Source: a virus. From it: a DNA stretch of 64,000 bases. Under the pieces are notes generated by a model that ran no database searches, had not been told where the DNA came from, and saw only the letters and a list, made by a program, of their open reading frames with translations. Numbering within the stretch: position 1 is the first letter of the stretch; every line of letters begins with the position of its first letter. Of this stretch, positions 26,381-47,618 are shown piece after piece. Both the position numbers and the translations under genes were made by a program. Location: the IMG/VR virus record IMGVR_UViG_3300042375_000763, positions 1-64,000 of that record; one strand, written 5' to 3'.

Positions 26381-26409
26381 AATAGACCTTTCTATGTTGT
26401 GTGATGTGT

Positions 26410-26725: not shown

Positions 26726-26743
26726 AATATCATCACTACATAG

Positions 26744-31738: not shown

Positions 31739-31815
31739 TGGTGCCCCTGGCAGGATTCGAACCCACAACCTGCCGCTTCGAAGGCGGAAGCTCTATCCAG
31801 TTGAGCTACAGAGGC
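31739..31815 (-). tRNA. tRNA-Arg(UCG)
   Basis: Cloverleaf, loop CU-UCG-AA, encoded CCA. Confidence 0.85.
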
Positions 31816-31822
31816 ACTATTC

Positions 31823-32953: not shown

Positions 32954-32998
32954 CCAGTATTGGATTCCTTTCTTGATTAAATTAATGTGATAAATTTT

Positions 32999-33352: not shown

Positions 33353-33444
33353 TTCAGTTCCTCATTCGGTTATAGTATTAATATAAACTGATTCGGGGTA
33401 TTTGTCAACTGAAAGTTTAACGGGCGCTCTTGGCGCCCGTGTTA

Positions 33445-33897
33445 TTATTCTGCAAATGCGGTTAGTTGCCACTGCATTTTTTCATGGAATTGGATTTGTG
33501 TCTCTAGTGTAGCAGAGATACCAATTTCATTCATAGAATCTGCCATGGCATGTGCTGATCTTAATTCATCCAATACAAGGCCATTATCAGATGCAAGTCT
33601 TACAAACATAAATCTTGGACTTGGGATTGCAATTTCATCTGAAATTATTGTAAGTTCAGAAAATCTTTTCAAAGAACCTGGTGCAAATGAACTCATTGTA
33701 CGGATCAATTCTGCATAAACATCAACTGAATCGTGAACTGATTCATAATAACCAGCAAAGAAAGCATGATATTCACTAAAATTTGGTCCAGTGACATTCC
33801 AGTGATAATTATGTGCTTTAAGATAGAGTGAAAATGATGATGCAAGTATCATTTTTAGCTTTTCAACTAATTCAGTTTTATCCATTGTAGTCTCCAT
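33445..33897 (-). CDS. dps: Dps / ferritin-like DNA protection protein
   Basis: LKAHNYHWNVTG..F...H, DVYAE, HEKMQWQL; late promoter at 33920-33927. Confidence 0.9.
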   Translation of the reverse strand: METTMDKTELVEKLKMILASSFSLYLKAHNYHWNVTGPNFSEYHAFFAGYYESVHDSVDVYAELIRTMSSFAPGSLKRFSELTIISDEIAIPSPRFMFVRLASDNGLVLDELRSAHAMADSMNEIGISATLETQIQFHEKMQWQLTAFAE

Positions 33898-33933
33898 TAT
33901 GAGGGTGATTGTTATGGGCTATTTATAATTAGA

Positions 33934-34007
33934 TGGTTTCCCTGGAAGGAATCGAGCCTTCTCCTCCGTCGAGTCAGGACGGTGCACTGCCATTATACTA
34001 CAGGGAA
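33934..34007 (-). tRNA. tRNA-Val(GAC), atypical (U37, C54)
   Basis: Full cloverleaf, loop CU-GAC-UC, T-loop CUCGAUU, CCA. Confidence 0.7.
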
Positions 34008-34195
34008 AAATAGACTAGTTTTGTTGTGTGTCTTGACGGGCCGCTTACTGGCGATCCACAATGAATGTGTTTTGGGTATTCCAGGGTTTCAGAATTTCGG
34101 CCTATAGTACAAACCCTTTTTATATAAATATAATTGTAGCTCGCGGATTTCTTGGCGGTCATCCCAACTACACTAGAAACATAAGGAGTTCCAGC

Positions 34196-34831
34196 ATGAT
34201 ATATTTATACGTCAAAACACACAACAAAACTGGTCTAAAATATTTAGGCAAAACAATCAATGAAGATCCATACAAATATACGGGATCAGGTAAATATTGG
34301 TTGAGACATCTTAAAAAGTATGGTACTGATTACACTACGCAAATACTTCTAGTAACTGAAGATAAAGATGAGCTAAAACAAACTGGATTATTTTTTAGTA
34401 AAATTTGGAATATTGTTAAATCTAAAGAGTGGGCAAATTTAATGCCAGAATCTGGCAATGGCGGAAAACAAGAAAAACTTTTAAACGAAGGTAAACATAA
34501 TTTTCAAAATTCTGAAGTTCAAAGAAAAATTCAATTAAATAGAGTTAAAAAAGGAACTCATAATTTACAATCTAAAAATAGAAATTCTACTAGAATAAGT
34601 AGAAAGGGTATTCCCCATCCTGTTACACTTCAGAGAAACCTTACCGATGATAATCCGTTTCGAGGTAACATTCCATGTATTGATAAAAATGGTAATTCAA
34701 TAATGATTGAAAAAAGCTTTTATTATGCACAAAATGGAAATAAAGAAGATTGGAATTATGTTCATACAAAATCTAAAGAAGCAAAGAAAAGAAAATTATT
34801 AACTGCTACTACAAACCTTTTTTCGCTTTAA
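34196..34831 (+). CDS. Seg-like (GIY-YIG-related) homing endonuclease, opposite strand
   Basis: YLYVKTHNKTGLKYLGKT..DPYKYTGSG..W..H, WANL..E, G(K/T)HN repeats; late promoter at 34123-34130. Confidence 0.8.
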   Translation: MIYLYVKTHNKTGLKYLGKTINEDPYKYTGSGKYWLRHLKKYGTDYTTQILLVTEDKDELKQTGLFFSKIWNIVKSKEWANLMPESGNGGKQEKLLNEGKHNFQNSEVQRKIQLNRVKKGTHNLQSKNRNSTRISRKGIPHPVTLQRNLTDDNPFRGNIPCIDKNGNSIMIEKSFYYAQNGNKEDWNYVHTKSKEAKKRKLLTATTNLFSL

Positions 34832-35063
34832 TCTTTTGTGATAGTTCAACAATAAATAAACCCACGGGGTGCTTCATTGCTTCCTGCAGTTCAAAATACA
34901 TCTTTGGACTCATACAGATAATTTCATATTTTTCTCTATCATCATCCCATTGTCTAATAAAAACTTGGTCGTCTGTTATCATAACCTGGACATCTTCATA
35001 ATCGGCACCTTCGTCCATTATGGTTGTCACAGTTTCATCAAAGTCAAATTCGTTTGTAAACAT
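34809..35063 (-). CDS. Hypothetical protein
   Basis: Start MFTNEF; the upstream part of the tracked ORF overlaps tRNA-Ser. Confidence 0.65.
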   Translation of the reverse strand: MFTNEFDFDETVTTIMDEGADYEDVQVMITDDQVFIRQWDDDREKYEIICMSPKMYFELQEAMKHPVGLFIVELSQKIKAKKGL

Positions 35064-35080
35064 CGAATATCTCCAAAGTT

Positions 35081-35172
35081 TGGCGGGGGCGGGGGAGTAC
35101 GATTCCCATACCAGTATTAGTGGCACGATCCGCTTAGCAGGCGGTCCTAGAGCCCCTCTAGTTCTCACCCCC
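35081..35172 (-). tRNA. tRNA-Ser(GCU), non-canonical D-arm and T-loop
   Basis: Loop CU-GCU-AA, long variable arm, G73, CCA. Confidence 0.8.
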
Positions 35173-35201
35173 CAAATTAACCTTCAGATATATTTATCCT
35201 T

Positions 35202-35405
35202 TTACCAGGCAGCTCGATCTTTTCTTGTATATCCGCGGTCAAAAAACCACGCATCTTTTACTAAACTTTTAACCGCTGAAGCTGCTTCATCATATGTCTT
35301 ATATGTGCCATATGGTTTACCAGCATAGATAATTTGAAACTTTTCAACAGTTGGTGCAAGAGTGCTGTAATACGACGTAATTTTGTAGTCGGATGCTTTA
35401 CCCAA
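35202..35405 (-). CDS. Hypothetical early protein
   Basis: TTG start with SD; early promoter upstream. Confidence 0.5.
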   Translation of the reverse strand: MGKASDYKITSYYSTLAPTVEKFQIIYAGKPYGTYKTYDEAASAVKSLVKDAWFFDRGYTRKDRAAW

Positions 35406-35478
35406 TGTATTTCCTTTAGGTTATATTGTTTATCACTTATTTAGTATATACTACCACGTGGATATGTCAACATAAAAG

Positions 35479-35603
35479 TTTGAGGCAGGTGCGGTATCTC
35501 CACAAAGTGTGGTGCCCATGCTCCTTTTGCAGATTGGCCGATCTGCTCTGAACCTATGCCTACGGGTACCAATCCGGCGTATTCAGACTTTACTTACCTC
35601 AAA
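35479..35603 (-). ncRNA. Unassigned structured RNA
   Basis: Closing stem TTTGAGGTAAGT/ACCTGCCTCAAA with internal hairpins. Confidence 0.45.
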
Positions 35604-35605
35604 TT

Positions 35606-35680
35606 TGGTGCTAGTGGTGAGAATTGAACTCACGACCTACTGTTTACGAGACAGTTGCACTACCTCTATGCTACACTAGC
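35606..35680 (-). tRNA. tRNA-Thr(CGU)
   Basis: Cloverleaf, loop CU-CGU-AA. Confidence 0.9.
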
Positions 35681-35761
35681 AAAAACTATAAATGGGCAGT
35701 TTTACTTCATGCCCAGGAATCTCGCTCCGACCACTTACTGATTTAAGAGCAGTAAGACTCT

Positions 35762-36136
35762 TTAGTCTACATCAACCCAAGCAGTGATATGCTTTAGATC
35801 GAGATTAGGGTTAGAGTATTTCTTTACAAGTGTGAGAACTCGAGGAAGTATGTTTTGGTAAAACAAATTTTCACGATCATATTTTCTCTTCTGTTCTACA
35901 TTCTTGTATGCTTTACCAGCGATGTAAGCTCGGGCAAGAAATGTTGCTCTATTCTCATTACGTACGTTCCATCGACGGTGTTCGTTTAGAGAGAACCATT
36001 GGCTTCGTTCAGCTTCTTGGTCTTGCTCATTCTGCTTTTTCCATTCAATTTGTCGCTTGAGTTTGTTCTCTTCGTGACGAATGATACGTGCTTCAACACT
36101 GAGGTGCTTTGATTTTACTTTTAGTTCAATAGACAT
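35762..36136 (-). CDS. Conserved hypothetical phage protein
   Basis: LKVKSKHL..EA.IIR.EE; HR...VR.E.RAT.LA. Confidence 0.7.
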   Translation of the reverse strand: MSIELKVKSKHLSVEARIIRHEENKLKRQIEWKKQNEQDQEAERSQWFSLNEHRRWNVRNENRATFLARAYIAGKAYKNVEQKRKYDRENLFYQNILPRVLTLVKKYSNPNLDLKHITAWVDVD

Positions 36137-36196
36137 TATGTTCTCCTAACATTGATTTGATTTGTAACATTGGTAGTGTTAATATTCAAACTACTG

Positions 36197-36427
36197 TTAG
36201 GGAGGTGCCCAATCTTCAATGATCGCATTATGATCACCGTCAATTTTCAGAATACACTTTTTAACCTTGATAGCACCTTTGGTACTTGGGTTATCAGGTG
36301 ATTCCTTTGTGCTCCAGGACTTGTTACAGTCAACATGATTGACATAGTAGGTTTGTCCTTTTGCTTTTAGCACCCACATCGGTATGCTAGAATCTTCGAG
36401 GTGTTTCTTGTTGAAGTGGAAAACCAC
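36197..36427 (-). CDS. Hypothetical protein (start uncertain)
   Basis: FHFNK.HL.D..IPMW..K.KG.TYYVNHV. Confidence 0.6.
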   Translation of the reverse strand: MVFHFNKKHLEDSSIPMWVLKAKGQTYYVNHVDCNKSWSTKESPDNPSTKGAIKVKKCILKIDGDHNAIIEDWAPP

Positions 36428-36590
36428 ATCATCACACCTCAGTTCAACCTATAAAGACATTGTATTACCCTTTCGTTTAGTGTTAAGTTTCGGGTATGTG
36501 AACACTCCCCGCTCGCGTTTCAGCACTTAATATCAGAGACTCTCTGAGAGCTAATATTAAGTTGGCCGTCACATTCAGCACTGAAATTTA

Positions 36591-36666
36591 TGGTGACCCC
36601 AGTGGGACTCGAACCCACGACATTTGCTTTTAGAGAGCATGCTCTAACCATCTGAGCTACGGGATC
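36591..36666 (-). tRNA. Amber suppressor-type tRNA (anticodon CUA)
   Basis: UGCU-CUCUAAA-AGCA anticodon arm, canonical D and T arms, CCA. Confidence 0.75.
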
Positions 36667-36671
36667 ATTAA

Positions 36672-36778
36672 CAGTTTGTGTGTCTACTTTTTTGGACAGA
36701 AAATCGAAAACTGTTGTGATCTTGTTGCCGAAGCTTACGACCTATGCTATGATTTTAATTGATTGCTGTACACAAACT
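36672..36778 (-). ncRNA. Clamp-motif RNA copy 1
   Basis: AGTTTGTG-TACAGCAA...CACAAACTG. Confidence 0.55.
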
Positions 36779-36791
36779 TGAAATTTTGTTT

Positions 36792-36866
36792 TGGTGCTGA
36801 TGATGAGGATCGAACTCATGACCTCTTCATTACCAATGAAGTGCACTACCGCTGTGCTACATCAGC
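36792..36866 (-). tRNA. tRNA-Thr(GGU)
   Basis: Cloverleaf, loop UU-GGU-AA. Confidence 0.92.
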
Positions 36867-37013
36867 ATTATTGTTTACTTCAAACGAAGCAACCATTTAA
36901 CAATATGTGTTACACCAAGATCCATATTAGGTTGAGGTGCAAGACGACCCGCCTTTGGAGTATCAATGTAACGCTGAATTGGATTAGTCATGATTATGTC
37001 TTTCAATTATTTA

Positions 37014-37322
37014 TTACCACTTGAACTTCGGGTTGTTTGTGAATGTAGTTGTAGTACTATTGATTTGTGAATCAATCTTGAAGTTTGTACTACCAGTAAT
37101 ATTAAAACTTCGGTTGAAATTGGTCACACCGTTGTTATATGAAAATGTTTGTAAAAAATTTCCACGACTTGAAGAAGGAGTATCAGACCTAAGTTGAATT
37201 GTAACCTTTGATCCAATGTTTGATGCAAATTGTGAAACACTATTTGAAGTGCTAAATGATGTCTGTGCAGGTGCTTGCATTGGAAATAGTGTGACTGCAA
37301 GCACCAAAAATACTTTTTTCAT
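37014..37322 (-). CDS. Secreted hypothetical protein
   Basis: Signal peptide MKKVFLVLAVTLFPMQAPA. Confidence 0.55.
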   Translation of the reverse strand: MKKVFLVLAVTLFPMQAPAQTSFSTSNSVSQFASNIGSKVTIQLRSDTPSSSRGNFLQTFSYNNGVTNFNRSFNITGSTNFKIDSQINSTTTTFTNNPKFKW

Positions 37323-37323
37323 T

Positions 37324-37497
37324 TCATTTACTCGGCACTGTCGCAAGTTGCATCCAGAGAGGCATCAACTGCGGAAGGAACGTGGTCAAAATACAGATAG
37401 AAAGAGTCGATAGAACCATTGAAGGGACTAGAAGAGTTTTCTCGTGCATGGAGACAAAAACTGCTGGAACTTTAAAAGCAACTGCGAGATTTTTCAT
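37324..37497 (-). CDS. Small membrane protein
   Basis: One hydrophobic segment; early promoter upstream. Confidence 0.5.
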   Translation of the reverse strand: MKNLAVAFKVPAVFVSMHEKTLLVPSMVLSTLSICILTTFLPQLMPLWMQLATVPSK

Positions 37498-37551
37498 TTG
37501 GTTTCCTTTGTTTGTGTTTATATTATTAATATATACCAAAATTGTGAAATG

Positions 37552-37800
37552 TCAACCGATTCTTTTCAGATATTCGTATGTTTCTTCGTATGTTTTAAAC
37601 AATTTAGTTCCATGTTTACTTACCACTCTCACAGAAGAACCGAAACATTGGACTAGACCGAAACCTGGGTAACGGCCATTACCAAGAAACCTCGTGTTCC
37701 ATCTTGTTCTTCTAGGAACAGGATCATGGTAATTATGATCTATTTTTAGTATTTCAGCACAGTTCTCGTAGAACTCACGCTTTTCATCTAGTGTTTTCAC
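37552..37800 (-). CDS. Hypothetical protein
   Basis: RTRWNTR..GNGRYPGFG. Confidence 0.6.
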   Translation of the reverse strand: MKTLDEKREFYENCAEILKIDHNYHDPVPRRTRWNTRFLGNGRYPGFGLVQCFGSSVRVVSKHGTKLFKTYEETYEYLKRIG

Positions 37801-37990
37801 TTTTTACTTTCAATTTATTTTGCTTGATGAAGGTTGCAATGTCACTCGGGCGGACGCGAACTTCGCGGTCCGATATTACGTATCCAACCTCGTTGTTTTG
37901 ATATGCACCAACACCTCTGATCTTCGTGTGAGTTTTTCCAATGGAATACTCGAACACATTGCCGTCTACTTCAAGTTTACGGTAACTCAT
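37784..37990 (-). CDS. Hypothetical protein
   Basis: Start MSYRK with SD AGGAG; the upstream tracked part overlaps RNA genes. Confidence 0.6.
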   Translation of the reverse strand: MSYRKLEVDGNVFEYSIGKTHTKIRGVGAYQNNEVGYVISDREVRVRPSDIATFIKQNKLKVKSENTR

Positions 37991-38027
37991 TTTTAATTCT
38001 CCTTGCGGGTTGCTAGCATTATTGCTA

Positions 38028-38133
38028 TGGGGTTTCTGGTGGGATTCGAACCCACGTCCCGCAGAGCCAGTTCTTTTTCGGTGTATCTTACCATCATAGC
38101 TGGGGTGCCCTTCTACCGCTGAATTACAGAAAC
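38028..38133 (-). ncRNA. tRNA-like RNA with an expanded (~48 nt) anticodon arm
   Basis: Perfect acceptor GTTTCTG/CAGAAAC, D and T arms and CCA; no 7-nt anticodon loop. Confidence 0.7.
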
Positions 38134-38143
38134 ATGTATTTGG

Positions 38144-38228
38144 TGGTGCCCCTACCCGGACTCGAACCGGGACTCCTTTCGGAAACAAATTTTGAGTCTG
38201 CCGCGACTGCCAATTTCACCATAGGGGC
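38144..38228 (-). tRNA. tRNA-Leu(CAA)
   Basis: Cloverleaf with variable arm. Confidence 0.9.
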
Positions 38229-38234
38229 ATTAGT

Positions 38235-38299
38235 CAGGATGGTTTTTGAGCGTTTACAAATTAAATGTTTGTTGCTTTCTTTTTTGCTGAACCCATCCT
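38235..38299 (-). ncRNA. Clamp-motif RNA copy 2
   Basis: AGGATGG-GTTCAGCAA...CCATCCTG. Confidence 0.6.
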
Positions 38300-38309
38300 T
38301 GGGTCTTTA

Positions 38310-38389
38310 CAGGATCAATTGTGGAATTGAACCACTTATTCAAATTTTGAAGATTTGTTTTTATCCAGATTGTTTACTGAACTGATCCT
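38310..38389 (-). ncRNA. Clamp-motif RNA copy 3 (anticodon-arm plus T-arm mimic)
   Basis: AGGATCAG-TTCAGTAA...CAAAT-CTTCAAA-ATTTG...GTGG-TTCAATT-CCAC..TTGATCCTG. Confidence 0.6.
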
Positions 38390-38461
38390 TTTATTTAATA
38401 TGAACCAATACCTCTTTTGACTTTGCCCACAATATTTTCAAAATGTCAACAATTCTTTTAC

Positions 38462-38728
38462 TTATGCTTCTGGATCTTCATCAAGTTTTTTACAAAACCC
38501 TTCAGCATAAATTTGTTCAGGGAAACCAAGCACGAAGAATGTTGTCTCATTTAATGAACCTTCTGTCACTTCCAAAACCATCTGTCTAGCTCGAATACCA
38601 CAATTTTCTTCTGTTTTATATGGACCCCATGTATCATTTGAAAAAAAACACATGTCTTCGTATATTTGAAATGTAGTACTTGCAGCACAGATAATCACAA
38701 AAGCTTGAAACATTAAACTATCTTTCAT
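38462..38728 (-). CDS. Hypothetical protein
   Basis: Cys motifs, WGPYKTEENC. Confidence 0.6.
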   Translation of the reverse strand: MKDSLMFQAFVIICAASTTFQIYEDMCFFSNDTWGPYKTEENCGIRARQMVLEVTEGSLNETTFFVLGFPEQIYAEGFCKKLDEDPEA

Positions 38729-38838
38729 GTTGGATAGAATTATTTATATTTGGTCGGTCTCTCCCTGGTGTCACACCTTTGCAGAGCGGTCTCTACAACC
38801 GTAAAGGATGCTTCGATGTTTGCAGAGCCTTTGGATTT

Positions 38839-38920
38839 TGGTACTCGCGATAGGACTCGAACCTACATCTTACCTCCAGTTAGCTTTGGCACCGTTCGTA
38901 GCGGTGGGGCGTACGCGAGC
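38839..38920 (-). tRNA. D-armless tRNA-Arg(ACG)-like RNA
   Basis: Acceptor, CACCG-CTACGAA-CGGTG, T-arm and CCA; 7-nt linker in place of the D-arm; 23-nt variable region. Confidence 0.7.
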
Positions 38921-38928
38921 ATTATAAG

Positions 38929-38988
38929 CAGGATCATTTGTTTTTCAAACCAAAATTGAAATTTTCGCTTGTTTGCGGAACTGATCCT
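38929..38988 (-). ncRNA. Clamp-motif RNA copy 4
   Basis: AGGATCA-GTTCCGCAA...TTCAA-TTTTGGT-TTGAA...TGATCCTG. Confidence 0.6.
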
Positions 38989-39110
38989 TTTAGAATTATT
39001 TATATCGGTTTGTCGCAGACACCGTAAAACTGCTTCCGATTGACTAGACGCAGAGCATCACCTCTGTAGGACCGGTGTCCCGAAACCGCCATTGTACAAT
39101 CTTCTAAATT

Positions 39111-39185
39111 TGGTCCTAGGTAGAGGATTCGAACCTCATCTTCCTCAGTCACAGTGAGGAGTGCAACCATTACACCTTACCTAGG
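39111..39185 (-). tRNA. tRNA-His(GUG) with A73
   Basis: CCTCA-CTGTGAC-TGAGG; ends GGA-CCA. Confidence 0.82.
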
Positions 39186-39194
39186 ATAAAAATA

Positions 39195-39410
39195 TTACTC
39201 TTTGCTATTAACAGCAGAAGCAACTCGTGTTGCAATTTCAATCTGCTTCTCTTCTGTTTTACCAAGAATTAGTAGTAAAATTGTAGATAGCAGTCCAAAA
39301 ATTGCACCACCTACAGCCCATCCAATTGCATTACGGCCACGTTCGGTAGCAAGATAGTGATTCAACCATGCCATAAGAGCAGCTGTAATTAGAATTACTA
39401 AAAGTTCCAT
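39195..39410 (-). CDS. Small two-TM membrane protein
   Basis: A.ERGRNAIGW hairpin. Confidence 0.7.
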   Translation of the reverse strand: MELLVILITAALMAWLNHYLATERGRNAIGWAVGGAIFGLLSTILLLILGKTEEKQIEIATRVASAVNSKE

Positions 39411-39442
39411 ATATTTTCTTTCTATTCATGATCATATAAATT

Positions 39443-39517
39443 TGGCTGGGGGAGGAGGGCTCGAACCTCCGACATCCTGATTCAAAGTCAGGCGCTCTAC
39501 CACTGAACTATCCCCCA
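39443..39517 (-). tRNA. tRNA-Gln(UUG)
   Basis: Cloverleaf. Confidence 0.92.
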
Positions 39518-39568
39518 ACGAATTGGTACTCGGTTATATTATTAGTATAAACCGATTCTATAGAAATG

Positions 39569-39823
39569 TCAATCGTTAATCCAATTCTTCATCCAACCTT
39601 TACCTTCAGGTCGTTCTACAACGGCAAACACCGAGTCTTTATGAACTGACCAATTGGTACCTGGTGTGTATGAACCTTTTTCTTCAACACCTTTAAAAGA
39701 CATTTTATTCACCTTTGTCACTTTAACCCAAGCACCGTGACCACCACGATTGCGGCATGGAACAAATACTTCGGTTCCTACAGTAATATCAAATTCTTTA
39801 CCGTAGATTGAAGTGACTTTCAT
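39569..39823 (-). CDS. Hypothetical early protein
   Basis: Early promoter and SD. Confidence 0.6.
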   Translation of the reverse strand: MKVTSIYGKEFDITVGTEVFVPCRNRGGHGAWVKVTKVNKMSFKGVEEKGSYTPGTNWSVHKDSVFAVVERPEGKGWMKNWIND

Positions 39824-39992
39824 CGTGTTTCCTTTTCATTCCGTATATTATTAGTATAAACTGATTCTATACGAATGTCAACAGAAAATGTTTGTCTGTC
39901 ACTCTCCAGACTGCCACCCATAAAATAATATTGCATCACAGTTTCAGGGTCACGATGCAAGGGTATCGTCTCTCTTTAAGAGACTCTAATAT

Positions 39993-40106
39993 CAGGATCA
40001 TTTATTTGCCGGTTGCCTTTACCATTTGGCCACAAAGATCTTGTGTGATCTAAGGTAGGACTTGAACCTACAATCTACTGGTTGTTAAAATTGCTGTATT
40101 GATCCT
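39993..40106 (-). ncRNA. Clamp-motif RNA copy 5 with a circularly permuted tRNA module
   Basis: T-arm GTAGG-TTCAAGT-CCTAC precedes a loop-closed acceptor and the D-arm GCC-AAATGGTAAA-GGC. Confidence 0.7.
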
Positions 40107-40112
40107 TAAACT

Positions 40113-40187
40113 TGGAGCGGACGATGAGATTCGAACTCACGACCTGATGCTTGGCAAGCATCTGCTCTACCACTGAGCTACGTCCGC
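40113..40187 (-). tRNA. tRNA-Gly(GCC)
   Basis: Cloverleaf, U73. Confidence 0.92.
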
Positions 40188-40286
40188 AATATAAAATACA
40201 ATGGAATAATGAGTGAGGTAGCGAACCATCATCTTGTTAATTTCCGTATCTAGACTTCTAAAACTCAGATACAACCATTGTAATCT

Positions 40287-40363
<77 letters not shown>

Positions 40364-40375
40364 ATAAACTTTATA

Positions 40376-40529
40376 ATTGAAAGAACGCTATAGGGTAATT
40401 AATCCTATTCGAGGACGCTGTTTGCAACCAACGTTTGATCCTAACTTTTGTGTTACAGATTCGAACTGTCCCTGCCAGCAAAGGCCGTGCATCCATTTAC
40501 ACCTTACGCTACTTGTCTGTTCCTTCAAT
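40376..40529 (-). ncRNA. tRNA-domain-containing ncRNA (manA-like), copy A
   Basis: Terminal stem, AAGTAGCG, D-like and T-like arms, AAAAGTTAGGATCA; homologous to 46077-46257. Confidence 0.6.
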
Positions 40530-40566
40530 AATAAAGTCTGTAATTTATTATGTTTATTTTTCTAAA

Positions 40567-40580
40567 TTGTCAAAGAGCGG
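40567..40580 (-). promoter_or_regulatory. boxA-like antitermination site
   Basis: CCGCTCTTTGACAA just downstream of a promoter; also at 44137-44148, 46639-46652, 47322-47334. Confidence 0.7.
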
Positions 40581-40616
40581 TTATTAAGTTTACCATATAC
40601 TGATTCTGTGTGTTTG

Positions 40617-40922
40617 TCAACCGAAAAGTTGTTCGGTAATCACGTTAATTTCCTTCGAAGATTGCTTACGAGCTTTACCTTCAAGAGAAGCATCATAGTC
40701 TTTGTAAGCAACTTCAACCTTATAACCAAGTTCATCACCTGATTGTTCACCGATAAACATCATTTCATAAAGACATTTGACGGTGACTTTCAGACTTTCT
40801 TTAGAACCATCATGAGACATTTCCATGATATTGGCGACCGATCTACGACCGTCTTCATCAGACTCAATCCAAAGTACACGGATTGCAGTATCGGAAGCTT
40901 TTTCGAAGATGTATTGGTTCAT
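40617..40922 (-). CDS. Hypothetical early protein
   Basis: Early promoter and SD. Confidence 0.6.
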   Translation of the reverse strand: MNQYIFEKASDTAIRVLWIESDEDGRRSVANIMEMSHDGSKESLKVTVKCLYEMMFIGEQSGDELGYKVEVAYKDYDASLEGKARKQSSKEINVITEQLFG

Positions 40923-40987
40923 GTTCGGTTCCTTTCCTTATATAATCAATATATACTGATTCTGTAAGGATGTCAACCATTATTTTT

Positions 40988-41208
40988 CTGGATCAACTTT
41001 TTGCGTAACCTGCTCTACTACCTGAGCTACTCTCCCATCAAAGATACTGCACGCTAGTTTATACCCAATTGTCTCGCCATATAAGCCTATTAATATCTTA
41101 TACAAGAAAGGTTGTCATAAACTAACAGTATCCGTGGTGGGAGAGGAAGGATTTGAACCTCCGACACGGCCCATTTCAAGGATGCTAATTTGTTGCTGTA
41201 ATGATCCA
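40988..41208 (-). ncRNA. Clamp-motif RNA copy 6: permuted tRNA-Phe-like RNA with a 98-nt intervening hairpin
   Basis: TTGAAAT-GGGCC-GTGTC-T-arm-CTCTCCC-ACCA, insert at 41037-41134, GGGAGAG-D-arm. Confidence 0.75.
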
Positions 41209-41316
41209 TTTTGTATTTGTCAAGCCAGAGCGTCACCAGTGTCGTGGATAGAATGTCTATAGTCACCTATATAAACTCAATCCATGATACCTGGCTATCA
41301 TCTGGCTGTCAGGAAT

Positions 41317-41389
41317 TGGAGCGGGTAGCCGGAATCGAACCGGTCTCCTGCAGATTGGAAATCTGATTGGTTGCCATAACCTTACCCGC
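41317..41389 (-). tRNA. tRNA-Gly(UCC)
   Basis: Cloverleaf, short D-loop. Confidence 0.82.
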
Positions 41390-41395
41390 ATTGAT

Positions 41396-41470
41396 TGGTC
41401 AGTGTGACAAGGATTGAACTTGCGACTTCTAGTTTCCAAAACTAGCACTCTACCACTGAGCTACACACTG
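41396..41470 (-). tRNA. tRNA-Pro(UGG), A37 variant
   Basis: CTAGT-TTTGGAA-ACTAG, C1-G72, A73. Confidence 0.85.
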
Positions 41471-41579
41471 ATATTCGTACTCCGAGGGTCTGAATCTCGG
41501 GAGCCGAGGAAGAGAGGGATAACCTTCAAAGCCAATACAGACAATAGGCTCGGGTCAGTGCGCTTTTCTTCCTAATAAT

Positions 41580-41663
41580 TGGTGCCCAGAGAGGGATTTG
41601 AACCCTCACGCAATTAAGCGCCACCTACTCAAGATGGTGTGTCTACCGTTTCACCACCTGGGC
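41580..41663 (-). tRNA. tRNA-Leu(GAG), U37
   Basis: Loop UU-GAG-UA, variable arm. Confidence 0.85.
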
Positions 41664-41665
41664 AT

Positions 41666-41911
41666 TTAAATTATGCGCGGCGATGGCCATAGACCACGCA
41701 TACAAATAATGTAGTGCAGTCCGTCCATCGGTGCTTGTAGTTTGGGAAGAGCAAAATTGTGGCCGACGGTGCCACCATAAGTATTCCCAACTAAAGCATA
41801 AATTGCTTGTTCTTCATTTACATTTAAAAGTCTACCATCACATGGTAGATAACCTTCTGGTGCATAATTAAATGCTACAAGTTTAACAGTACCTAATAGT
41901 TCTTCGTCCAT
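41666..41911 (-). CDS. Phage tail-collar domain protein
   Basis: LGTVKLVAFNYAPEGYLPCDGRLL...YALVGNTYGG...FALPKL...YIIC..G.WP. Confidence 0.85.
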   Translation of the reverse strand: MDEELLGTVKLVAFNYAPEGYLPCDGRLLNVNEEQAIYALVGNTYGGTVGHNFALPKLQAPMDGLHYIICMRGLWPSPRII

Positions 41912-41937
41912 ATTTTTTCCTTCATATCAAAGTATAA

Positions 41938-42012
41938 TGGTAGTCCGTAAAGGGATCAAACCTTTGACCTTCTCCGTGTAAAGGAGTTGCTCTATCGCTG
42001 AGCTAACGGACC
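41938..42012 (-). tRNA. tRNA-Val(UAC)
   Basis: Cloverleaf. Confidence 0.85.
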
Positions 42013-42019
42013 GTTATTT

Positions 42020-42103
42020 TGGTGCGCCTGGAGGGACTTGAACCCCCACGCCCGAAGGCACTGCATTCTAAGTGCAGCGTGGCTGCCATTACACCACAAG
42101 CGC
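42020..42103 (-). tRNA. tRNA-Leu(UAG)
   Basis: Cloverleaf, A37. Confidence 0.9.
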
Positions 42104-42111
42104 ATAAACTT

Positions 42112-42187
42112 TGGCTGCCCCTCGTGGACTCGAACCACGGTTTCCTGATTCAGAGTCAGGCGTCCTACCGGCATAGACGAAGGGGCA
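42112..42187 (-). tRNA. tRNA-Gln(CUG)
   Basis: Cloverleaf. Confidence 0.9.
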
Positions 42188-42236
42188 AAAATTTCAGCCG
42201 GAAATTCTTTAGTCAGGCGCCGGATCGCCTCGTTAA

Positions 42237-42319
42237 TGGTGTCAATCAAGGAATTGAACCTTGTCATAGCGTGACATGACGCCTGTGATATCTGTGCTGT
42301 TAGCAAACCTGCATTGACA
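42237..42319 (-). ncRNA. tRNA-like RNA (acceptor, T-arm and CCA; aberrant D/anticodon region)
   Basis: TGTCAAT/ATTGACA-CCA and CAAGG-TTCAATT-CCTTG. Confidence 0.55.
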
Positions 42320-42326
42320 TGTTTAT

Positions 42327-42402
42327 TGGTGGACCATGACGGTAACGATCCGTCTCTTCCGCATTGCAAGTGCGGTGTGCTACCCTCTATCACTAATGGC
42401 CC
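42327..42402 (-). tRNA. tRNA-Ala(UGC)
   Basis: G3-U70, loop CU-UGC-AA. Confidence 0.88.
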
Positions 42403-42760
42403 ATAAATTCTGCTGGTTCTCACGTTGTCGAACCGAATGCTGTCTAGAATTTCGACCCGTGCTGGATTTACAGCATCTAAGGTATCTAGATCAAACTCAA
42501 ATTGGACAAGGAGCGGGAAGTTGAACCCACCAGCACGAACCGATATTACCAGTATCATTATCATGCATGCCTGACGCCACCTTTCTTGCAAACTCTGGTA
42601 AAGTCTGCGGTACTTGGATCATCACCCCGTTGGTGCCTACGTTTGCCTCGACCAAATGGGAAGCGAGCATAGGACTTAGTTGATATAGACTGGGCTGGTT
42701 TGCCGACTTGACCTATCTCTAGGGTCACACTCATAAGGGGTGACTATATCCAGTCTATTT

Positions 42761-42836
42761 TGGTGGATCTTATCAGTCTCGAACTGATTACCACGGACTT
42801 CCGCCCAGTGCTTTACCCATCTTAAGCTAAAGACCC
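42761..42836 (-). ncRNA. tRNA mimic with G3-U70/A73 and a GGAA-tetraloop-capped anticodon arm
   Basis: GGGTCTT/AAGATCC-A-CCA; TGGGC-GGAA-GTCCG. Confidence 0.65.
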
Positions 42837-42842
42837 AATGTT

Positions 42843-42919
42843 TGGTTGCGGGAGAAGGATTTGAACCTTCGACCTCTTGGTTATGAGCCAAGCGAGCTAC
42901 CGGACTGCTCTATCCCGCA
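42843..42919 (-). tRNA. tRNA-Met(CAU), initiator-like
   Basis: GAGCAGTCCGGTAGCTC D-arm, CU-CAU-AA, UUCAAAU. Confidence 0.88.
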
Positions 42920-43064
42920 AAAATCTATTTGTTACCTAGTCCTTTCGATTGACAGCCGCTAAACCAATCAATCTGGGTTCTGTCCGATTTTGACTCAAGT
43001 TGAAAGTTGCCATGGCAACCGCTCTCTATTGTCCCAGTAACACGTCCACCCAAAGTCCATTGAT

Positions 43065-43138
43065 TGGCGCACCTGACGGGACTCGAACCCGCCTTCACGG
43101 TTAGACAGACCGCGGCCTTCCCTGACGGCAACAGGTGC
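43065..43138 (-). tRNA. tRNA-Asp(GUC), U37
   Basis: Loop CU-GUC-UA, G73. Confidence 0.8.
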
Positions 43139-43147
43139 ATTGTATTT

Positions 43148-43222
43148 TGGCTCCTCAGACAGGATTCGAACCTATATTGAACAGATTAACAATCTGGAGC
43201 CTTACCTATCGGCCACTGAGGA
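43148..43222 (-). tRNA. tRNA-Asn(GUU)
   Basis: Cloverleaf, G73. Confidence 0.82.
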
Positions 43223-43721
43223 ACAATTCTTTTATATTTTCTTTATAAACCCATTCACCTTTTGCAATGTTAATTTTATAATGAGTTAGATAATATCTTT
43301 CTTCTTCTCTTGCATTTTCAACAACACGGTAATGTTCAACTTTATATCTTTTCATCGGATCATATGTTTGATAAGATCTTAAACGATTTACGAGATTTTT
43401 GGTCATACCAATTTTAATAAAACCATCAAAAGCAGGATTACTAATTAAATAAACAATTCCACTTTTTGTTTTTGTCTTTGATTTATTAGTTTTTACTTCT
43501 TCTATTTCTTCTCTTTGTAAATTTAATTTCAACAAAGATAAACCAGCTAATTTTAAAGCATAATTTTTATTAGAATTTGTTTTTGTATCACCATTGCCAG
43601 AATATTTTGAATATAAAGATACATAGTCTTCTTTCATACTATGGGTAATATCAAATATACCATTCGGTGGCAATGCATCTGTTTCAATCATCTCATAAAA
43701 AATAAAACTATCAAACTTCAC
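43206..43721 (-). CDS. GIY-YIG (T5orf172-like) endonuclease within the tRNA array
   Basis: GIVYLISNPAF...KIGMTKN...RL..YQT.DP...GEW; stop codon lies inside tRNA-Asn. Confidence 0.8.
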   Translation of the reverse strand: MKFDSFIFYEMIETDALPPNGIFDITHSMKEDYVSLYSKYSGNGDTKTNSNKNYALKLAGLSLLKLNLQREEIEEVKTNKSKTKTKSGIVYLISNPAFDGFIKIGMTKNLVNRLRSYQTYDPMKRYKVEHYRVVENAREEERYYLTHYKINIAKGEWVYKENIKELFLSGR

Positions 43722-43738
43722 AATATACTTTCTATATT

Positions 43739-43813
43739 TGGCAGGGGCCGCGAGAGTCGAACTCGCTTCTCAAGGTTTTGGAGGCCCGCGGATTACCGGT
43801 TTCCCTGACCCCT
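43739..43813 (-). tRNA. tRNA-Trp(CCA), weak anticodon stem
   Basis: Loop CU-CCA-AA, G73. Confidence 0.72.
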
Positions 43814-43824
43814 GCATTTAATTT

Positions 43825-43900
43825 TGGCTCCCAGTGACGGGCTCGAACCGCCGACCCAAGGATTAACAATCCTTTGCTCTACCAACTGAGCTAACTGGGA
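43825..43900 (-). tRNA. tRNA-Asn(GUU)
   Basis: Cloverleaf. Confidence 0.93.
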
Positions 43901-43906
43901 ACATTA

Positions 43907-44031
43907 TCTCTGTTTTCAGCTAAGGGTCACCAAGGAATTGAACCTTGCGTTCACTTTGTCGGAAGCTGCCGAAATCGCCGACACGATTAGGGCACTCACG
44001 GACCATCATGACCCTCATGTGAAAACAGAGA
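43907..44031 (-). ncRNA. TCTGTTTT-stem RNA family, copy A
   Basis: TCTGTTTTCA-CA...GC-TGAAAACAGA enclosing a T-arm. Confidence 0.6.
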
Positions 44032-44552
44032 GTATTCAATCTGGTCTTATCGGTTTGTCCGAGCCAGATAATCTCTGTTTTGTTTTTGTAAATCACGGTT
44101 TACAGTTTCATCAACTAACGTGATCAGATTTCTAAATTGTCAAAGAGCAAGATTAACATTCATCAACAAGACACTCATCACCCAGATTAGCATAGTCAAA
44201 GTCTGGGATATATTCCACTTCGATCCAACCTTTTTGGCGAAGCGAGAGCGCCTCATACCAATAGCAAGTAACTTTTTCCTTAGTAATTACATTTTGCATT
44301 ACGTAGGTTTCCATATTATTTCCTTTGGTTGGTTATAAGTTTAGTATAAACTGATTCTTACAGATTGTCAACCAATTTTCCGCGGATATTTTCAAGACCT
44401 TTATCTTTGATAACGGTCAACAGTTCCATGCAAGCATTGGATTTTTCAATCTCACCTGCAAGGAGAAAATCAGCAGCATTACGAGCAAGACGTTCAATCA
44501 GTTTGGTCATTGTCATGTTTCGGTTTCCTTTGTGTTACCTTATATATTTAAA

Positions 44553-44789
44553 CTATACCGATTCCATACGATTGTCAACCACTTTGTTGCGTCTTTGCTT
44601 CTTTTGTTTTTCAAGAAGTTTCTTGGCACGGATACGAGCCAAAGCATCTTCTTCGTCTTTTTGGAGATGCGCTGTTTTTGCAAACCTTGATACTTGACGG
44701 CGAAGTCGAGCAGCAATAGATCGTTTCCAGCGGGTTGCACGTGAAGGTTTTTCGAGTTTGATGTCGACATCTTCTTCTACAGTATCCAT
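44553..44789 (-). CDS. Basic hypothetical protein
   Basis: SD GGAG; Arg/Lys-rich. Confidence 0.55.
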   Translation of the reverse strand: MDTVEEDVDIKLEKPSRATRWKRSIAARLRRQVSRFAKTAHLQKDEEDALARIRAKKLLEKQKKQRRNKVVDNRMESV

Positions 44790-44815
44790 GGTATATTCTC
44801 CATTTTAAATTATGA

Positions 44816-44906
44816 TGGCAGATGGTGGAGGTATCGAACCCCTGACGGGTATCAGCCGTCACGCTAGTTTTCAAGACTAGTCGAAGCACCTGCTTCCGCA
44901 CCATCC
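44816..44906 (-). tRNA. tRNA-Ser(UGA), extended D-stem
   Basis: CTAGT-CTTGAAA-ACTAG, variable arm, G73. Confidence 0.82.
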
Positions 44907-44912
44907 ATAATT

Positions 44913-44997
44913 TGGTACCCCCTGCCGGACTCGAACCGGCACGCCATAACAGCTAGAGATTTTAAGTCTCTTGTGTCTACCATTCCACCAAGGAGGC
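44913..44997 (-). tRNA. tRNA-Leu(UAA)
   Basis: Cloverleaf. Confidence 0.92.
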
Positions 44998-45007
44998 ATT
45001 ATTTAAT

Positions 45008-45135
45008 CAGGATCAACTTTTTGCTACGCGTTTTACTACTAAACTAACCCCTGTCAGTGTATGGTCAGGGGTGTAGGAATTGCACCTACGACTCGATCTC
45101 CGAATGATATGCATATTTGTTGCTGAAATGATCCT
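45008..45135 (-). ncRNA. Clamp-motif RNA copy 7: permuted tRNA-Pro-like RNA
   Basis: TTCGGAG...GTAGG-TGCAATT-CCTAC-ACCCCTG-ACCA-linker-CAGGGGT-D-arm. Confidence 0.72.
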
Positions 45136-45141
45136 TTAATT

Positions 45142-45771
45142 TTATTTTTGTATTAGATAGTGTGTGTCATATGTAAATGCTACAACTTCATTATTTTTGG
45201 TATCTAGAATTGAAAACCCCAAATCCTTGAAGTATTTAAATAATTTGTCACGTTTAACTTGGTCACTTTTTATGTCAGATACTTGATGTGTTTCTAAGAC
45301 AATTGTAGGATAATCTCTAGTAAGAATTTCTTGTCCATGGTAAAATATTTCATATTCACCACCTTCAATATCACATTTAATAAAATCAACTTTGATATCT
45401 TTACAAAATGTATCAAGTGTTATTGATTGTACTTGTATAGTATTGTTTACTGAATGTCCCCATTTCTTGAGTTTTGCCAAACCTTCCATAATAGTGTGAC
45501 CACCATCATTTGCAGAACAAACAAAAAGATCAATAACACCATCTGATGTTCCAATTACTTTTTGTTCTATTTGAACATTTTGTTCAGTAACTTTAGCTTT
45601 AATCTTTGTTACATTGTCTGGGTGTGGTTCAAATGAATAAACTTTCCCAAATTTTGATGCAAGTAATTTTGAGTAAATTCCATGATTTGCTCCTATATCT
45701 AGTGCAATTCCATTTTCATTTACTTCTAAATTTGCTATTACGGTTGCAACCCAATCTTCATTTCTAGACAT
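45142..45771 (-). CDS. FkbM-family SAM methyltransferase
   Basis: LDIGANHG, SFEP, IKCDIEGGE. Confidence 0.9.
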   Translation of the reverse strand: MSRNEDWVATVIANLEVNENGIALDIGANHGIYSKLLASKFGKVYSFEPHPDNVTKIKAKVTEQNVQIEQKVIGTSDGVIDLFVCSANDGGHTIMEGLAKLKKWGHSVNNTIQVQSITLDTFCKDIKVDFIKCDIEGGEYEIFYHGQEILTRDYPTIVLETHQVSDIKSDQVKRDKLFKYFKDLGFSILDTKNNEVVAFTYDTHYLIQK

Positions 45772-45921
45772 AAATTGCCCTCTTAAAATACTATAATTAA
45801 CACCATCTTACTTCTCTGACCTTGGCTCGGGCTGCCTTGGATCAGTTCATCGCAGTATTCCGCTAAGAACCTATCAACCTCATCCCTCTTTTACTCTTGG
45901 TGATAGGCGATGGTGTGTATT

Positions 45922-45996
45922 TGGAGCGGGTAGCCGGCATCGAACCGGTCCTCTCTAGCTTGGAAGGCTAGGGCACATCCTCTATACCATACCCGC
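45922..45996 (-). tRNA. tRNA-Gly(UCC)
   Basis: Cloverleaf. Confidence 0.88.
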
Positions 45997-46076
45997 AATG
46001 TTTTTGGCTCTGCTCAGGCTATGTTGAGCGACTTAGTTGCTTCTTCGATCAGGCCGAAGCAATACCGATAAGTTTA

Positions 46077-46257
46077 TTAGACCTCATAATTGAAGAAATA
46101 TTGTTGGTTAGCTACTCCAAACTAGGGAACTGTTTCGAACCAGTGATCCCAGCTTTTCATGGTAAGGATTCGAACCTTGTCTCCCGCTTCACGCGGGCGT
46201 GCTATCCGGGTTGCACCATTCCACTACTTTACCTATTTCCTCAATGATGAGGTCTAA
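46077..46257 (-). ncRNA. tRNA-domain-containing ncRNA (manA-like), copy B
   Basis: ~24-bp terminal stem; AAGTAGTG, D/T-like arms, AAAAGCTGGGATCA. Confidence 0.65.
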
Positions 46258-46262
46258 AAATT

Positions 46263-46339
46263 TGGTGGTCCCTGTAGGATTCGAACCTACGACATTCCGC
46301 TTAGAAGGCGGATGCTCTATCCAACTGAGCTAAGGAACC
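46263..46339 (-). tRNA. tRNA-Arg(UCU)
   Basis: Cloverleaf. Confidence 0.93.
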
Positions 46340-46416
46340 AATGTGTTTGGCTCTACCCATCCGCTCTTGGGCGATTTAACTGGTGGTGATTTGATTAACA
46401 CCAGTACCGATATGTT

Positions 46417-46493
46417 TGGTAGGGGATGACGGACTCGAACCGCCAACCGTCTTCTTATGAGGAAGCTGAACTAACCAATTGTTCTAATCCCCC
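46417..46493 (-). tRNA. tRNA(CAU): Ile2 or elongator Met
   Basis: Loop CU-CAU-AA, non-initiator body. Confidence 0.8.
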
Positions 46494-46497
46494 AAAC

Positions 46498-46615
46498 TCT
46501 GTTTTGAGCGATATACATTGCCACGATGTTCTCTGCTGTGTTTCAAGCAACACTGTCATGTCTACCCGCTTACATCTTTCGACTGGTGCACGCCATGTAT
46601 ATCTGTCAAAACAGA
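46498..46615 (-). ncRNA. TCTGTTTT-stem RNA family, copy B
   Basis: TCTGTTTTGA-CA...GC-TCAAAACAGA (compensatory G-C pair). Confidence 0.55.
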
Positions 46616-46922
46616 ATTTAATCTGTTTTAGTTCTAAATTGTCAAAGAGCGGTTTGTCATTCAGGGTTTACAGTTTCATCAACTAACCTGATTTATAAGT
46701 TTATATTATACTGATTCTGTGGTTTTGTCAACCGTTTTATGCAAAACCACCAGATTTCAAGCGAGAATAAACAGTCCCATCTTCAACACGAATGAAGAAA
46801 CCATCATCTTCAATGATCTTCTGACCTTTGTAGAAGCTGCCGACGAGATTTTGTTTCATTTGGTTTCCTTTACCTTATATAATCAATATATACTGATTCT
46901 ATAGTAATGTCAACCATTATTT

Positions 46923-47012
46923 TGGCGGAGTCGGGGGAGCACGATTCCCATGGTATTTCTACCACGTTCTGCTTTCCAAGCAGACCTGCCAACCTTGACA
47001 GCTCTCAACTCC
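46923..47012 (-). tRNA. tRNA-Ser(GGA), non-canonical D-arm and T-loop
   Basis: TCTGC-TTGGAAA-GCAGA, G73. Confidence 0.8.
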
Positions 47013-47019
47013 ATAATTT

Positions 47020-47095
<76 letters not shown>

Positions 47096-47100
47096 ATTAT

Positions 47101-47203: not shown

Positions 47204-47386
47204 TTTTCAGTATTCCGAAGAATACCTCTAACAAAGGAACATTCAGACACATTCGTCAGTTTGTTCTTCTGTTTTTCAGATCTATTATCGAGTTTCCTCT
47301 AAGACCACAAGGAGTAATTAGTTTCAAAGAGCGGTTTGATTTCCTTTATAAGTCAGTTATAAACCGATTCTCTTATATTGTCAACC

Positions 47387-47425
47387 AAAATAAAAAGGCC
47401 CAGGGTTTTATTCCTGGGCCTTTTT
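47387..47425 (-). terminator. Intrinsic terminator of the putative attenuator
   Basis: AAAAAGGCCCAGG-AATAAAAC-CCTGGGCCTTTTT-ATTTT. Confidence 0.85.
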
Positions 47426-47453
47426 GAGATAGAATTTTTATCGAATTTCTATG

Positions 47454-47552
47454 TCAAAACAGCCCACTTCCTCTGCCTATGAGCACTTGGCGACCAGGAT
47501 TATTATCCTGTGTCCATTGCGCTGATAATGAGGAGACGTGTAGGGAAGTCAT
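47454..47552 (-). CDS. Putative attenuator leader peptide (32 aa; not in the ORF track)
   Basis: MTSLHVSSLSAQWTQDNNPGRQVLIGRGSGLF*; SD GAGAG; late promoter at 47582-47589; stop codon lies inside the antiterminator strand. Confidence 0.65.
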   Translation of the reverse strand: MTSLHVSSLSAQWTQDNNPGRQVLIGRGSGLF

Positions 47553-47618
47553 GATACTCTCGGTTGGTTAAATTGTAATTTTATTTATAACACGCTTTCG
47601 TTGACTTCGTAAAAAAGA

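Follow-up and report, generated by a model that had tools for sequence, protein, structure and literature searches.

A probable leader-peptide transcription attenuator upstream of a tRNA array in an uncultured T4-like phage

The short element that precedes the large tRNA array of an uncultured T4-like phage from lake water is probably a ribosome-mediated transcription attenuator of the leader-peptide type, a conclusion drawn from sequence and its comparison among related genomes. The window analyzed here comprises the first 64,000 nucleotides of an IMG/VR contig of 80 kb whose estimated completeness is ~40%; the gene strand in the window is the minus strand, and the gp52 topoisomerase subunit is 44% identical to that of the nearest cultured phages, the T4-like phages of Aeromonas, with related uncultured contigs at 60-81% identity. 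A sequence-only reading of the window had described the element as a codon-survey attenuator that switches on the tRNA genes when translation stalls, and the comparative evidence favors both its attenuator architecture and its match between leader codons and tRNAs, but not the reason that was given for the amino acids missing from the leader.

The late promoter, 32-codon ORF, strong terminator, and downstream early promoter named in that reading are all present on the minus strand. The T4-type late promoter motif TATAAATA (47582..47589) lies 30 nt upstream of the leader ATG; it occurs in 13 copies in the window compared with 6.4 expected, with 11 of the 13 on the gene strand and several directly before ORF starts, and it is invariant in all seven aligned homologues and also precedes the analogous leaders of other lineages. 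A Shine-Dalgarno-like GAGAG (47557..47561), likewise invariant in the homologue alignment, is found 4 nt 5' of the ATG, and 38 of 53 long ORFs in the window have GAG, AGG, or GGA at positions -16 to -4. Leader ORF 1 (47454..47552, with the ATG at 47552 and the TGA at 47456-47454) consists of 32 codons and the stop, and it contains an internal hairpin (47495..47510) with a GGAT/ATCC core inside CAGGAT..ATCCTG, in which pair 90:99 changes from G:C to A:T in the second of the two homologue clades described below; this hairpin may serve as a pause or "region 1" element.

The last three sense codons and the stop of the leader form the antiterminator 5' strand GGGCTGTTTTGA (47454..47465), and its partner, the antiterminator 3' strand TCAAAAAGGCCC (47416..47427), shares 47416-47425 with the 5' arm of an intrinsic terminator composed of AAAAAGGCCCAGG, an 8-base loop, and CCTGGGCCTTTTT (47387..47425). 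The terminator has a 13-bp stem (47425-47392) followed by ATTTT, and it is the only strong minus-strand terminator detected between 30 and 50 kb. The 11 of 12 pairs originally claimed between the end of the ORF and this arm are obtained if one G:U is counted; strictly, 10 of the positions form Watson-Crick pairs, one forms a G:U, and one is a G.A mismatch. As had also been noticed, ATAGAA (47452-47447) and TTCTAT (47434-47429), separated by 12 nt, form a small hairpin (47429..47452) that caps and extends the alternative hairpin, and in the second clade an A:T pair of this small hairpin is changed to G:T. An early sigma-70-type promoter, TTGACA-17-TATAAC (47356..47384, with TTGACA at 47384-47379), is located 3' of the terminator, a placement also seen in the leader 1 homologues, and because it bypasses the element, the element would mainly act on late and upstream transcripts; in this respect we agree with the original view that control would be confined to late transcription.

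The presumed regulated genes are those of tRNA array 1 (31739..47095, minus strand), which contains 27 tRNAs recognized by ARAGORN, an intron-containing tRNA, and a further gene missed by ARAGORN (43742-43813, minus; Rfam 36 bits, loop CUCCAAA) that is probably a tRNA-Trp(CCA) and would serve the TGG codon of leader 1. Inside the array there are at least 12 early promoters and four further TATAAATA motifs, which may contribute to tRNA output independently of the element. On the transcript 3' of the early promoter lies a boxA-like element, GCTCTTTGAAAC (47321..47332, minus), and the corresponding motif GCTCTTTGA(A/C)A, which we take to resemble the rrn boxA antitermination element, has seven matches in the window compared with 1.2 expected. 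Four of the seven are in array 1 in the direction of the genes, and these minus-strand copies (47321-47332, 46639-46650, 44137-44148, and 40567-40578) are found just 3' of array 1 early promoters.

Several other features of the tRNA region were recorded in passing. A tRNA with the anticodon CTA, which would read TAG and is labeled Pyl by ARAGORN, is encoded within array 1 (36591-36666, minus), and a permuted, two-piece, alpha-type tmRNA gene recognized by ARAGORN is found at 26363-26794 (minus; Rfam 104.7 bits). Anticodon-loop insertions of about 28-49 nt occur in tRNA genes of the window (38028-38133, minus) and of related contigs (L044:16347, 16628, and 20544; L037:9213 and 9440); ARAGORN -i treats them as introns, the genes match the Rfam tRNA family too, and there seem to be several such genes per phage. 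Elements that are tRNA-like or resemble circularly permuted tRNAs, with the flanking inverted repeat CTGTTTTCACATGC ... GCAGCTGAAAACAG, are present at 47100-47200 (minus) of the window and at L037:8560-8680, and the permuted element of L037 has the T-arm and acceptor 3' end first, followed by the acceptor 5' end and D-arm. The non-coding stretch between the early promoter and the first tRNA (47188-47304, minus, in the window; L037:8463-8576) is 80% identical over 118 nt between these distant contigs.

In the mechanism that we propose, RNAs initiated at the late promoter, and those reading in from upstream genes, would include the 32-codon leader, the last 12 bases of which can pair with the terminator 5' arm. 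A fast ribosome that reached the stop codon would cover the pairing strand, allowing the terminator to fold and transcription to end before the tRNA genes. A ribosome that lagged in about the first 23 codons would leave the strand free to pair with the terminator arm as the arm emerges, which would weaken the base of the terminator stem and let more polymerases read on into the array. The outcome would thus be set by a race, in which the ribosome would have to arrive at roughly the final eight codons before transcription of the terminator is complete, and a delay summed over nearly all of the codons served by the downstream tRNAs would free the strand and lower termination. The early promoters 3' of the terminator would provide unconditional early tRNA synthesis, with gating reserved for the late promoter and upstream transcripts, and since the boxA-like element would be passed after the gate, polymerases might become termination-resistant only beyond it. 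The phage would therefore probably make more tRNA when ribosomes read the leader codons slowly, and each tRNA operon would have its own negative feedback. The natural trigger might be ordinary demand, host shut-off, or a defense that cleaves tRNAs. That the leader is translated, that ribosomes stall on it, that polymerases read through, and that the response runs in this direction are steps that we infer from the arrangement of the sequence elements.

A search of metagenome contigs with a back-translated query identified six true homologues of leader 1, which together with the window fall into two clades, a window-type clade (the window, L049, and L048) and clade B (L003, L050, L052, and L053; L051 is the same contig as L003). 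A further metagenome match, L054, was rejected as a high-GC chance match. A DNA-pattern search of viral contigs returned L003 plus two high-GC chance matches, or just the two known loci of the leader 2 type discussed below; blastn of the leader 1 region for close cultured-phage relatives returned tRNA matches only, tblastn of the leader 1 or leader 2 peptide gave E values of 1 or more, and the 128-aa upstream protein as a query found no loci. The leader 1 region is unchanged in contigs from four DNA runs, and no RNA run turned up with this DNA. In one lake metagenome run, a 360-nt contig is identical on either side of this site (47396-47563), with the 166 nt of leader and terminator exchanged for 173 unlike letters, and a diverged leader/terminator cassette seems to be present in co-occurring strains.

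Both clades keep the late promoter, the GAGAG, the small hairpin, the terminator, and the early promoters behind it, and the leader frame is open in all homologues at 31 or 32 codons, with a 3-nt length difference between the clades. The consensus structure predicted by RNAalifold for the leader 1 homologues is the antiterminator hairpin. At alignment column 176, in the antiterminator, the window has the G.A mismatch, L048 has G:C, and clade B has A:T; the arm base changes along with the ORF strand and does not follow the terminator 3' arm, with which it is mismatched in L048 and clade B. Two further ideas were considered and rejected. Stop-codon read-through or frameshifting at U-UUU-UGA would extend the reading frame, and by eye the conservation of the extended frames is no more than RNA structure explains. 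An apparent 20/23 match with a tRNA-like gene of L037 had suggested that the 3' half of the leader was a relic of an intron-bearing tRNA, and blastn-short reduced this to 14/15 with E = 1.2, which marks it as a resemblance due to chance.

The peptide itself is conserved at its ends in the window-type and clade B leaders, with an N-terminal MTSLH, a C-terminal VLIGRGS.LF, a Trp, and a UGA stop. The ends are kept via synonymous changes, including AGT to TCC for Ser, such that a functional peptide would also fit, and the middle of the peptide varies solely among amino acids served by the array behind it. It is conceivable that the conserved nascent peptide is itself the sensor, an arrest peptide like TnaC or SecM that would halt the ribosome around the UGA stop in response to a ligand or state, and the conserved MTSLH, VLIGRGS.LF, Trp, and UGA are what such a mechanism would be expected to preserve. 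We consider this very improbable, given that in other lineages the architecture is shared while the peptide is not and the stops vary (TGA, TAA, and TAG), and that arrest at the stop would leave the ribosome sitting on the pairing strand and favor termination, making a poor inducible switch.

Those other lineages were found by a scan for TATAAATA followed by a short ORF and a terminator, in gp52-linked loci and in stretches from the genomes behind them; anchoring the scan on TATAAATA biases the sample toward modules with a late promoter. The module of late promoter, short ORF, terminator, and then tRNAs is present in 13 related contig copies that represent at least nine unrelated sequence versions, and analogous modules of unrelated sequence occur in L035, L037, L019/L044, L008, L056 (genome G001), L004, L057 (genome G002), and elsewhere on the window's own contig. 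Peptides and hairpin sequences differ among the lineages, as do the stops (TGA, TAA, or TAG). An open short ORF and a terminator are found in 13/13 modules, and in 13/13 the ORF has a tail of ~20 bases that is complementary to a segment reaching 5-12 nt into the terminator 5' arm. The pairings comprise 10 perfect pairs in L035, 12-14 bp in L008, 13-16 bp in L019/L044, and 9-10 bp in the second leader of the window's contig, and in comparison with shuffled sequences their P values are 0.001 or less in five modules, those of L019/L044, L008, and the second leader among them, and 0.01-0.35 in the rest. The stop codon lies inside the pairing strand or no more than 10 nt after it in every module, and as a result a terminating ribosome would cover the strand. 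Between L019 and L044, one ORF codon changes from GCT to GAT, replacing Ala with Asp, and the arm carries a matching G-to-T change; this compensatory pair, kept at the cost of an amino-acid change, is predicted by a functional alternative structure and not by a small gene with a plain terminator. A leader with a terminator and arm pairing is kept in these 13 modules, with compensatory changes that preserve the pairing.

Energy calculations, which use nearest-neighbor models that leave out the polymerase and the co-transcriptional order of folding, give a less even picture. For the leader 1 copy taken alone, the ORF-tail/arm duplex energy has P = 0.03-0.09 compared with shuffles, and when both conformers are folded, the alternative hairpin is predicted in a shortened form that coexists in the minimum-energy fold with an intact terminator GC core. 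The full antiterminator of leader 1 is modeled as 3.9 kcal/mol worse than the terminator state, with a barrier of 3.8 kcal/mol, and in an equilibrium model the three basal pairs of the terminator form with a probability of 0.77 when the ribosome is at codon 8 and 0.87 when it is at the stop. Given a predicted advantage of about 4 kcal/mol for the terminator and a barrier of similar height, the leader 1 switch may be weak; in the models it looks tight or weak. In the same equilibrium model the probability of the basal pairs, for a ribosome stalled at codon 8 and at the stop, respectively, is 0.03 and 0.82 in clade B, and for stalled ribosomes and ribosomes at the stop it is 0.27 and 0.79 in L035, 0.04 and 0.84 in L044, 0.01 and 0.87 in L008, 0.04 and 0.81 in leader 1 of G001, and 0.52 and 0.81 in leader 2 of the window's contig. 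Clear switching is modeled in 7-8 modules other than leader 1, and the module family is thus predicted to act like an attenuator in silico.

The behavior of leader 1 in these models bears on another explanation, in which the ORF is just a small late gene like any other, its terminator closes the upstream transcription unit ahead of the early promoters of the array, and the hairpin at the stop codon merely stabilizes the 3' end of the mRNA without regulation. The terminator of leader 1 is predicted to form whether or not the end of the ORF is free, an early promoter follows at once, and the peptide ends are conserved with synonymous changes, all of which would suit a gene of this kind. It would leave unexplained why the stop codon is in or next to the strand complementary to the arm in 13 modules with unrelated peptides, and why an amino-acid change was accepted to keep the pairing. 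Nor does it explain the composition of the leader, which mirrors the tRNAs behind it, or the absence of a good promoter by eye between the terminator of the second tRNA cluster and its first tRNA, both described below. On balance we judge this explanation to be quite unlikely.

Recounting of leader 1 gives 27 distinct codons among the 31 that follow the ATG and no Lys, Glu, Tyr, or Cys, exactly as first reported. In the phage's own genes, 27 or more distinct codons are found in 1.6% of 31-codon windows, and the absence of K, E, Y, and C in 0.7% of windows of equal length, and the codon diversity given the amino-acid sequence has P = 0.03; these statistics are post-hoc and only modestly significant taken alone. 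Leader 1 samples 13-15 amino acids, covering all 13 that array 1 serves, and the sole codons it takes from the set of the other cluster are ATA (Ile) and the terminal TTT (Phe); a protein segment with no more than two cluster 2 residues and all 13 array 1 amino acids is found in 3 of 10,997 windows of phage proteins. Counted by anticodon, 17 of the 21 species that array 1 encodes are sampled in leader 1 (P = 0.0014), and one of the seven of cluster 2. Thus, with one or two codons for nearly all the tRNA species encoded in the array and hardly any for cluster 2, the transit time of the ribosome would report the charged-tRNA supply of the array. Cluster-2-type codons in type-1 leaders (TTT, and also GAG and TTC) fall in the pairing strand, which is constrained by structure.

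The same codon content could be accommodated by a terminator that is coupled to translation in a more general way, reporting ribosome supply or the coupling of ribosome and polymerase, with the codon match being secondary. The anatomy and its conservation apply equally to a general sensor of this kind, which might moreover be expected from a leader in which each tRNA species is sampled once or twice without runs of a single codon, and in which 7 of the 31 codons (TCC twice, CCT, CGC, AGT, ATA, and TGG) do not have a strictly cognate tRNA in the array. What makes it unlikely, in our estimation, is the second tRNA operon of the phage, where two leaders partition the code in parallel with the two clusters, even to the choice of ATA or ATT for Ile, and the comparison between genomes, in which the split shifts along with the tRNAs; a general sensor would not need such a split.

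The second operon came to light outside the window. L035, the closest relative, has a separate tRNA cluster upstream of its topoisomerase genes, and the contig of the window carries tRNA cluster 2 at 67.0-68.1 kb (minus strand), with genes for Ile-gat, Tyr, Phe, Glu, Lys-ctt, Lys-ttt, Met, and Cys. The statement that there is no tRNA for Lys, Glu, Tyr, and Cys is accordingly correct within the window but not contig-wide, and the explanation that leader 1 omits these amino acids because the phage lacks the tRNAs is wrong, in that the phage encodes them in another operon. The locus of cluster 2 and its leader (contig 67001-68340, L055:7001-8340, minus) has an early and a late promoter, a 19-codon leader, and an antiterminator/terminator. 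The early promoter overlaps a TATAAATA and is followed by a ribosome-binding site and then by the 19-codon ORF, and the GGAGGGTTC of leader 2 is the exact complement of its terminator arm GAACCCTCC. A boxA-like motif is located 3' of the attenuator, directly before the tRNA-Ile, and no good match to a -10 box was found by eye between the terminator and the tRNA-Ile, with the consequence that cluster 2 appears to be wholly dependent on read-through.

Codons 3-12 of leader 2 encode Y-F-I-C-K-F-E-E-Y-M, a set identical to the seven amino acids served by the eight cluster 2 tRNAs, and such a run of 10 cluster 2 residues is matched in none of 11,686 windows of phage proteins. The match of leader 2 with cluster 2 is therefore the mirror image of that of leader 1 with array 1, and the agreement between codons and tRNAs is far better than chance. 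The two-leader/two-cluster split recurs in G001, a complete 194.6-kb genome, and in G002, so that leader codons do track the tRNA sets of related phages, as had been anticipated. At the codon level, with strict wobble rules applied, the association of leader with cluster has Fisher p values of 4e-5 in the window's genome, 0.013 in G001, and 8e-4 in G002, values that are indicative rather than exact because the three genomes are relatives of one another and leader 2 had already been seen when the tests were devised. The detail of the split is informative: the Ile codon is ATA in leaders of arrays with tRNA-Ile(tat) and ATT in leaders of clusters with Ile(gat), and His is in leader 1 in the window's genome, where tRNA-His is in array 1, and in leader 2 in G002, where tRNA-His is in cluster 2. 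In the L019/L044 lineage, the leader has Tyr and Lys codons and there are Tyr and Lys tRNAs behind it.

Beyond attenuation as such, it is possible that the leaders function as per-operon "codon-census" attenuators, which would provide feedback on tRNA supply and also detect the loss of host tRNAs, inducing the exact replacement tRNAs late in infection; we put this forward tentatively, as an extension that we regard as less likely to be right than wrong. That the leaders might sense host tRNA loss, caused for example by anticodon nucleases or by decay induced by shut-off, is a purely speculative component of the proposal. If the attenuator reading is correct, phages would tune their tRNA supply by having a ribosome test-read a miniature codon sample of each tRNA operon, which would explain the sorting of phage tRNA genes into clusters and would amount to a natural sensor that registers the decoding speed of many tRNAs simultaneously. 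It would also make the debated role of phage tRNAs, whether compensation for codon usage or replacement of tRNAs lost to host defense, directly testable with reporters.

Structurally, the element has what defines a leader-peptide attenuator, namely a short ORF with a ribosome-binding site, a terminator, a competing pairing, and an enrichment of cognate codons, which in leader 1 is spread over many tRNA species and not concentrated in a run of one codon. Leader-peptide attenuation is textbook knowledge for amino-acid and synthetase operons, and to our knowledge it is known neither for tRNA genes nor in phages; full-text searches, outside the scope of which most subscription journals fell, did not find leader-peptide attenuation of phage tRNA genes. 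In the region of 25-49 kb, only tRNA and tmRNA families pass the Rfam thresholds, with no T-box or other family, and none of the Rfam leader families Thr_leader, His_leader, Trp_leader, and Leu_leader reaches its gathering score (the best is Thr_leader at 20.6 bits, compared with 55). Phage T4 is similar in having clustered genes for tRNAs and small stable RNAs that are transcribed from upstream promoters, and the 95 nt between trna.2 and tRNA-Gln of T4 do not contain a short ORF-plus-terminator module.

The T-box riboswitch is comparable in controlling termination before translation-supply genes according to the state of specific tRNAs, but it binds uncharged tRNA directly, without a ribosome or an ORF. 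In the erm/cat-type leaders and the uORF attenuators defined by Term-seq, ribosome stalling controls antibiotic-resistance genes, and here too a stalled ribosome on a short upstream ORF refolds the RNA and switches on the downstream gene; these leaders respond to a drug and a particular nascent peptide, whereas in the phage modules the peptide is unconserved between lineages and the codon/tRNA match is conserved. The pheST attenuator of Escherichia coli, in which the pheM leader contains consecutive Phe codons and regulates a synthetase, is likewise a leader-peptide attenuator on a gene of the translation apparatus that matches its output to charged-tRNA supply, although it concerns one amino acid, a synthetase rather than tRNAs, and a cellular rather than a viral gene. 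The multivalent leader-peptide attenuators of enterobacterial amino-acid operons, thrL (Thr, Ile) and ilvL/ivbL (Ile, Leu, Val), share with the phage element a short leader, a stop beside the strand that pairs with the terminator 5' arm, and codons that report on more than one charged tRNA. They differ in that they control biosynthetic enzymes and contain runs of codons for one to three amino acids, whereas the phage element would control tRNA genes, samples many tRNA species once or twice each, and has a late promoter to drive it and an early promoter that bypasses it.
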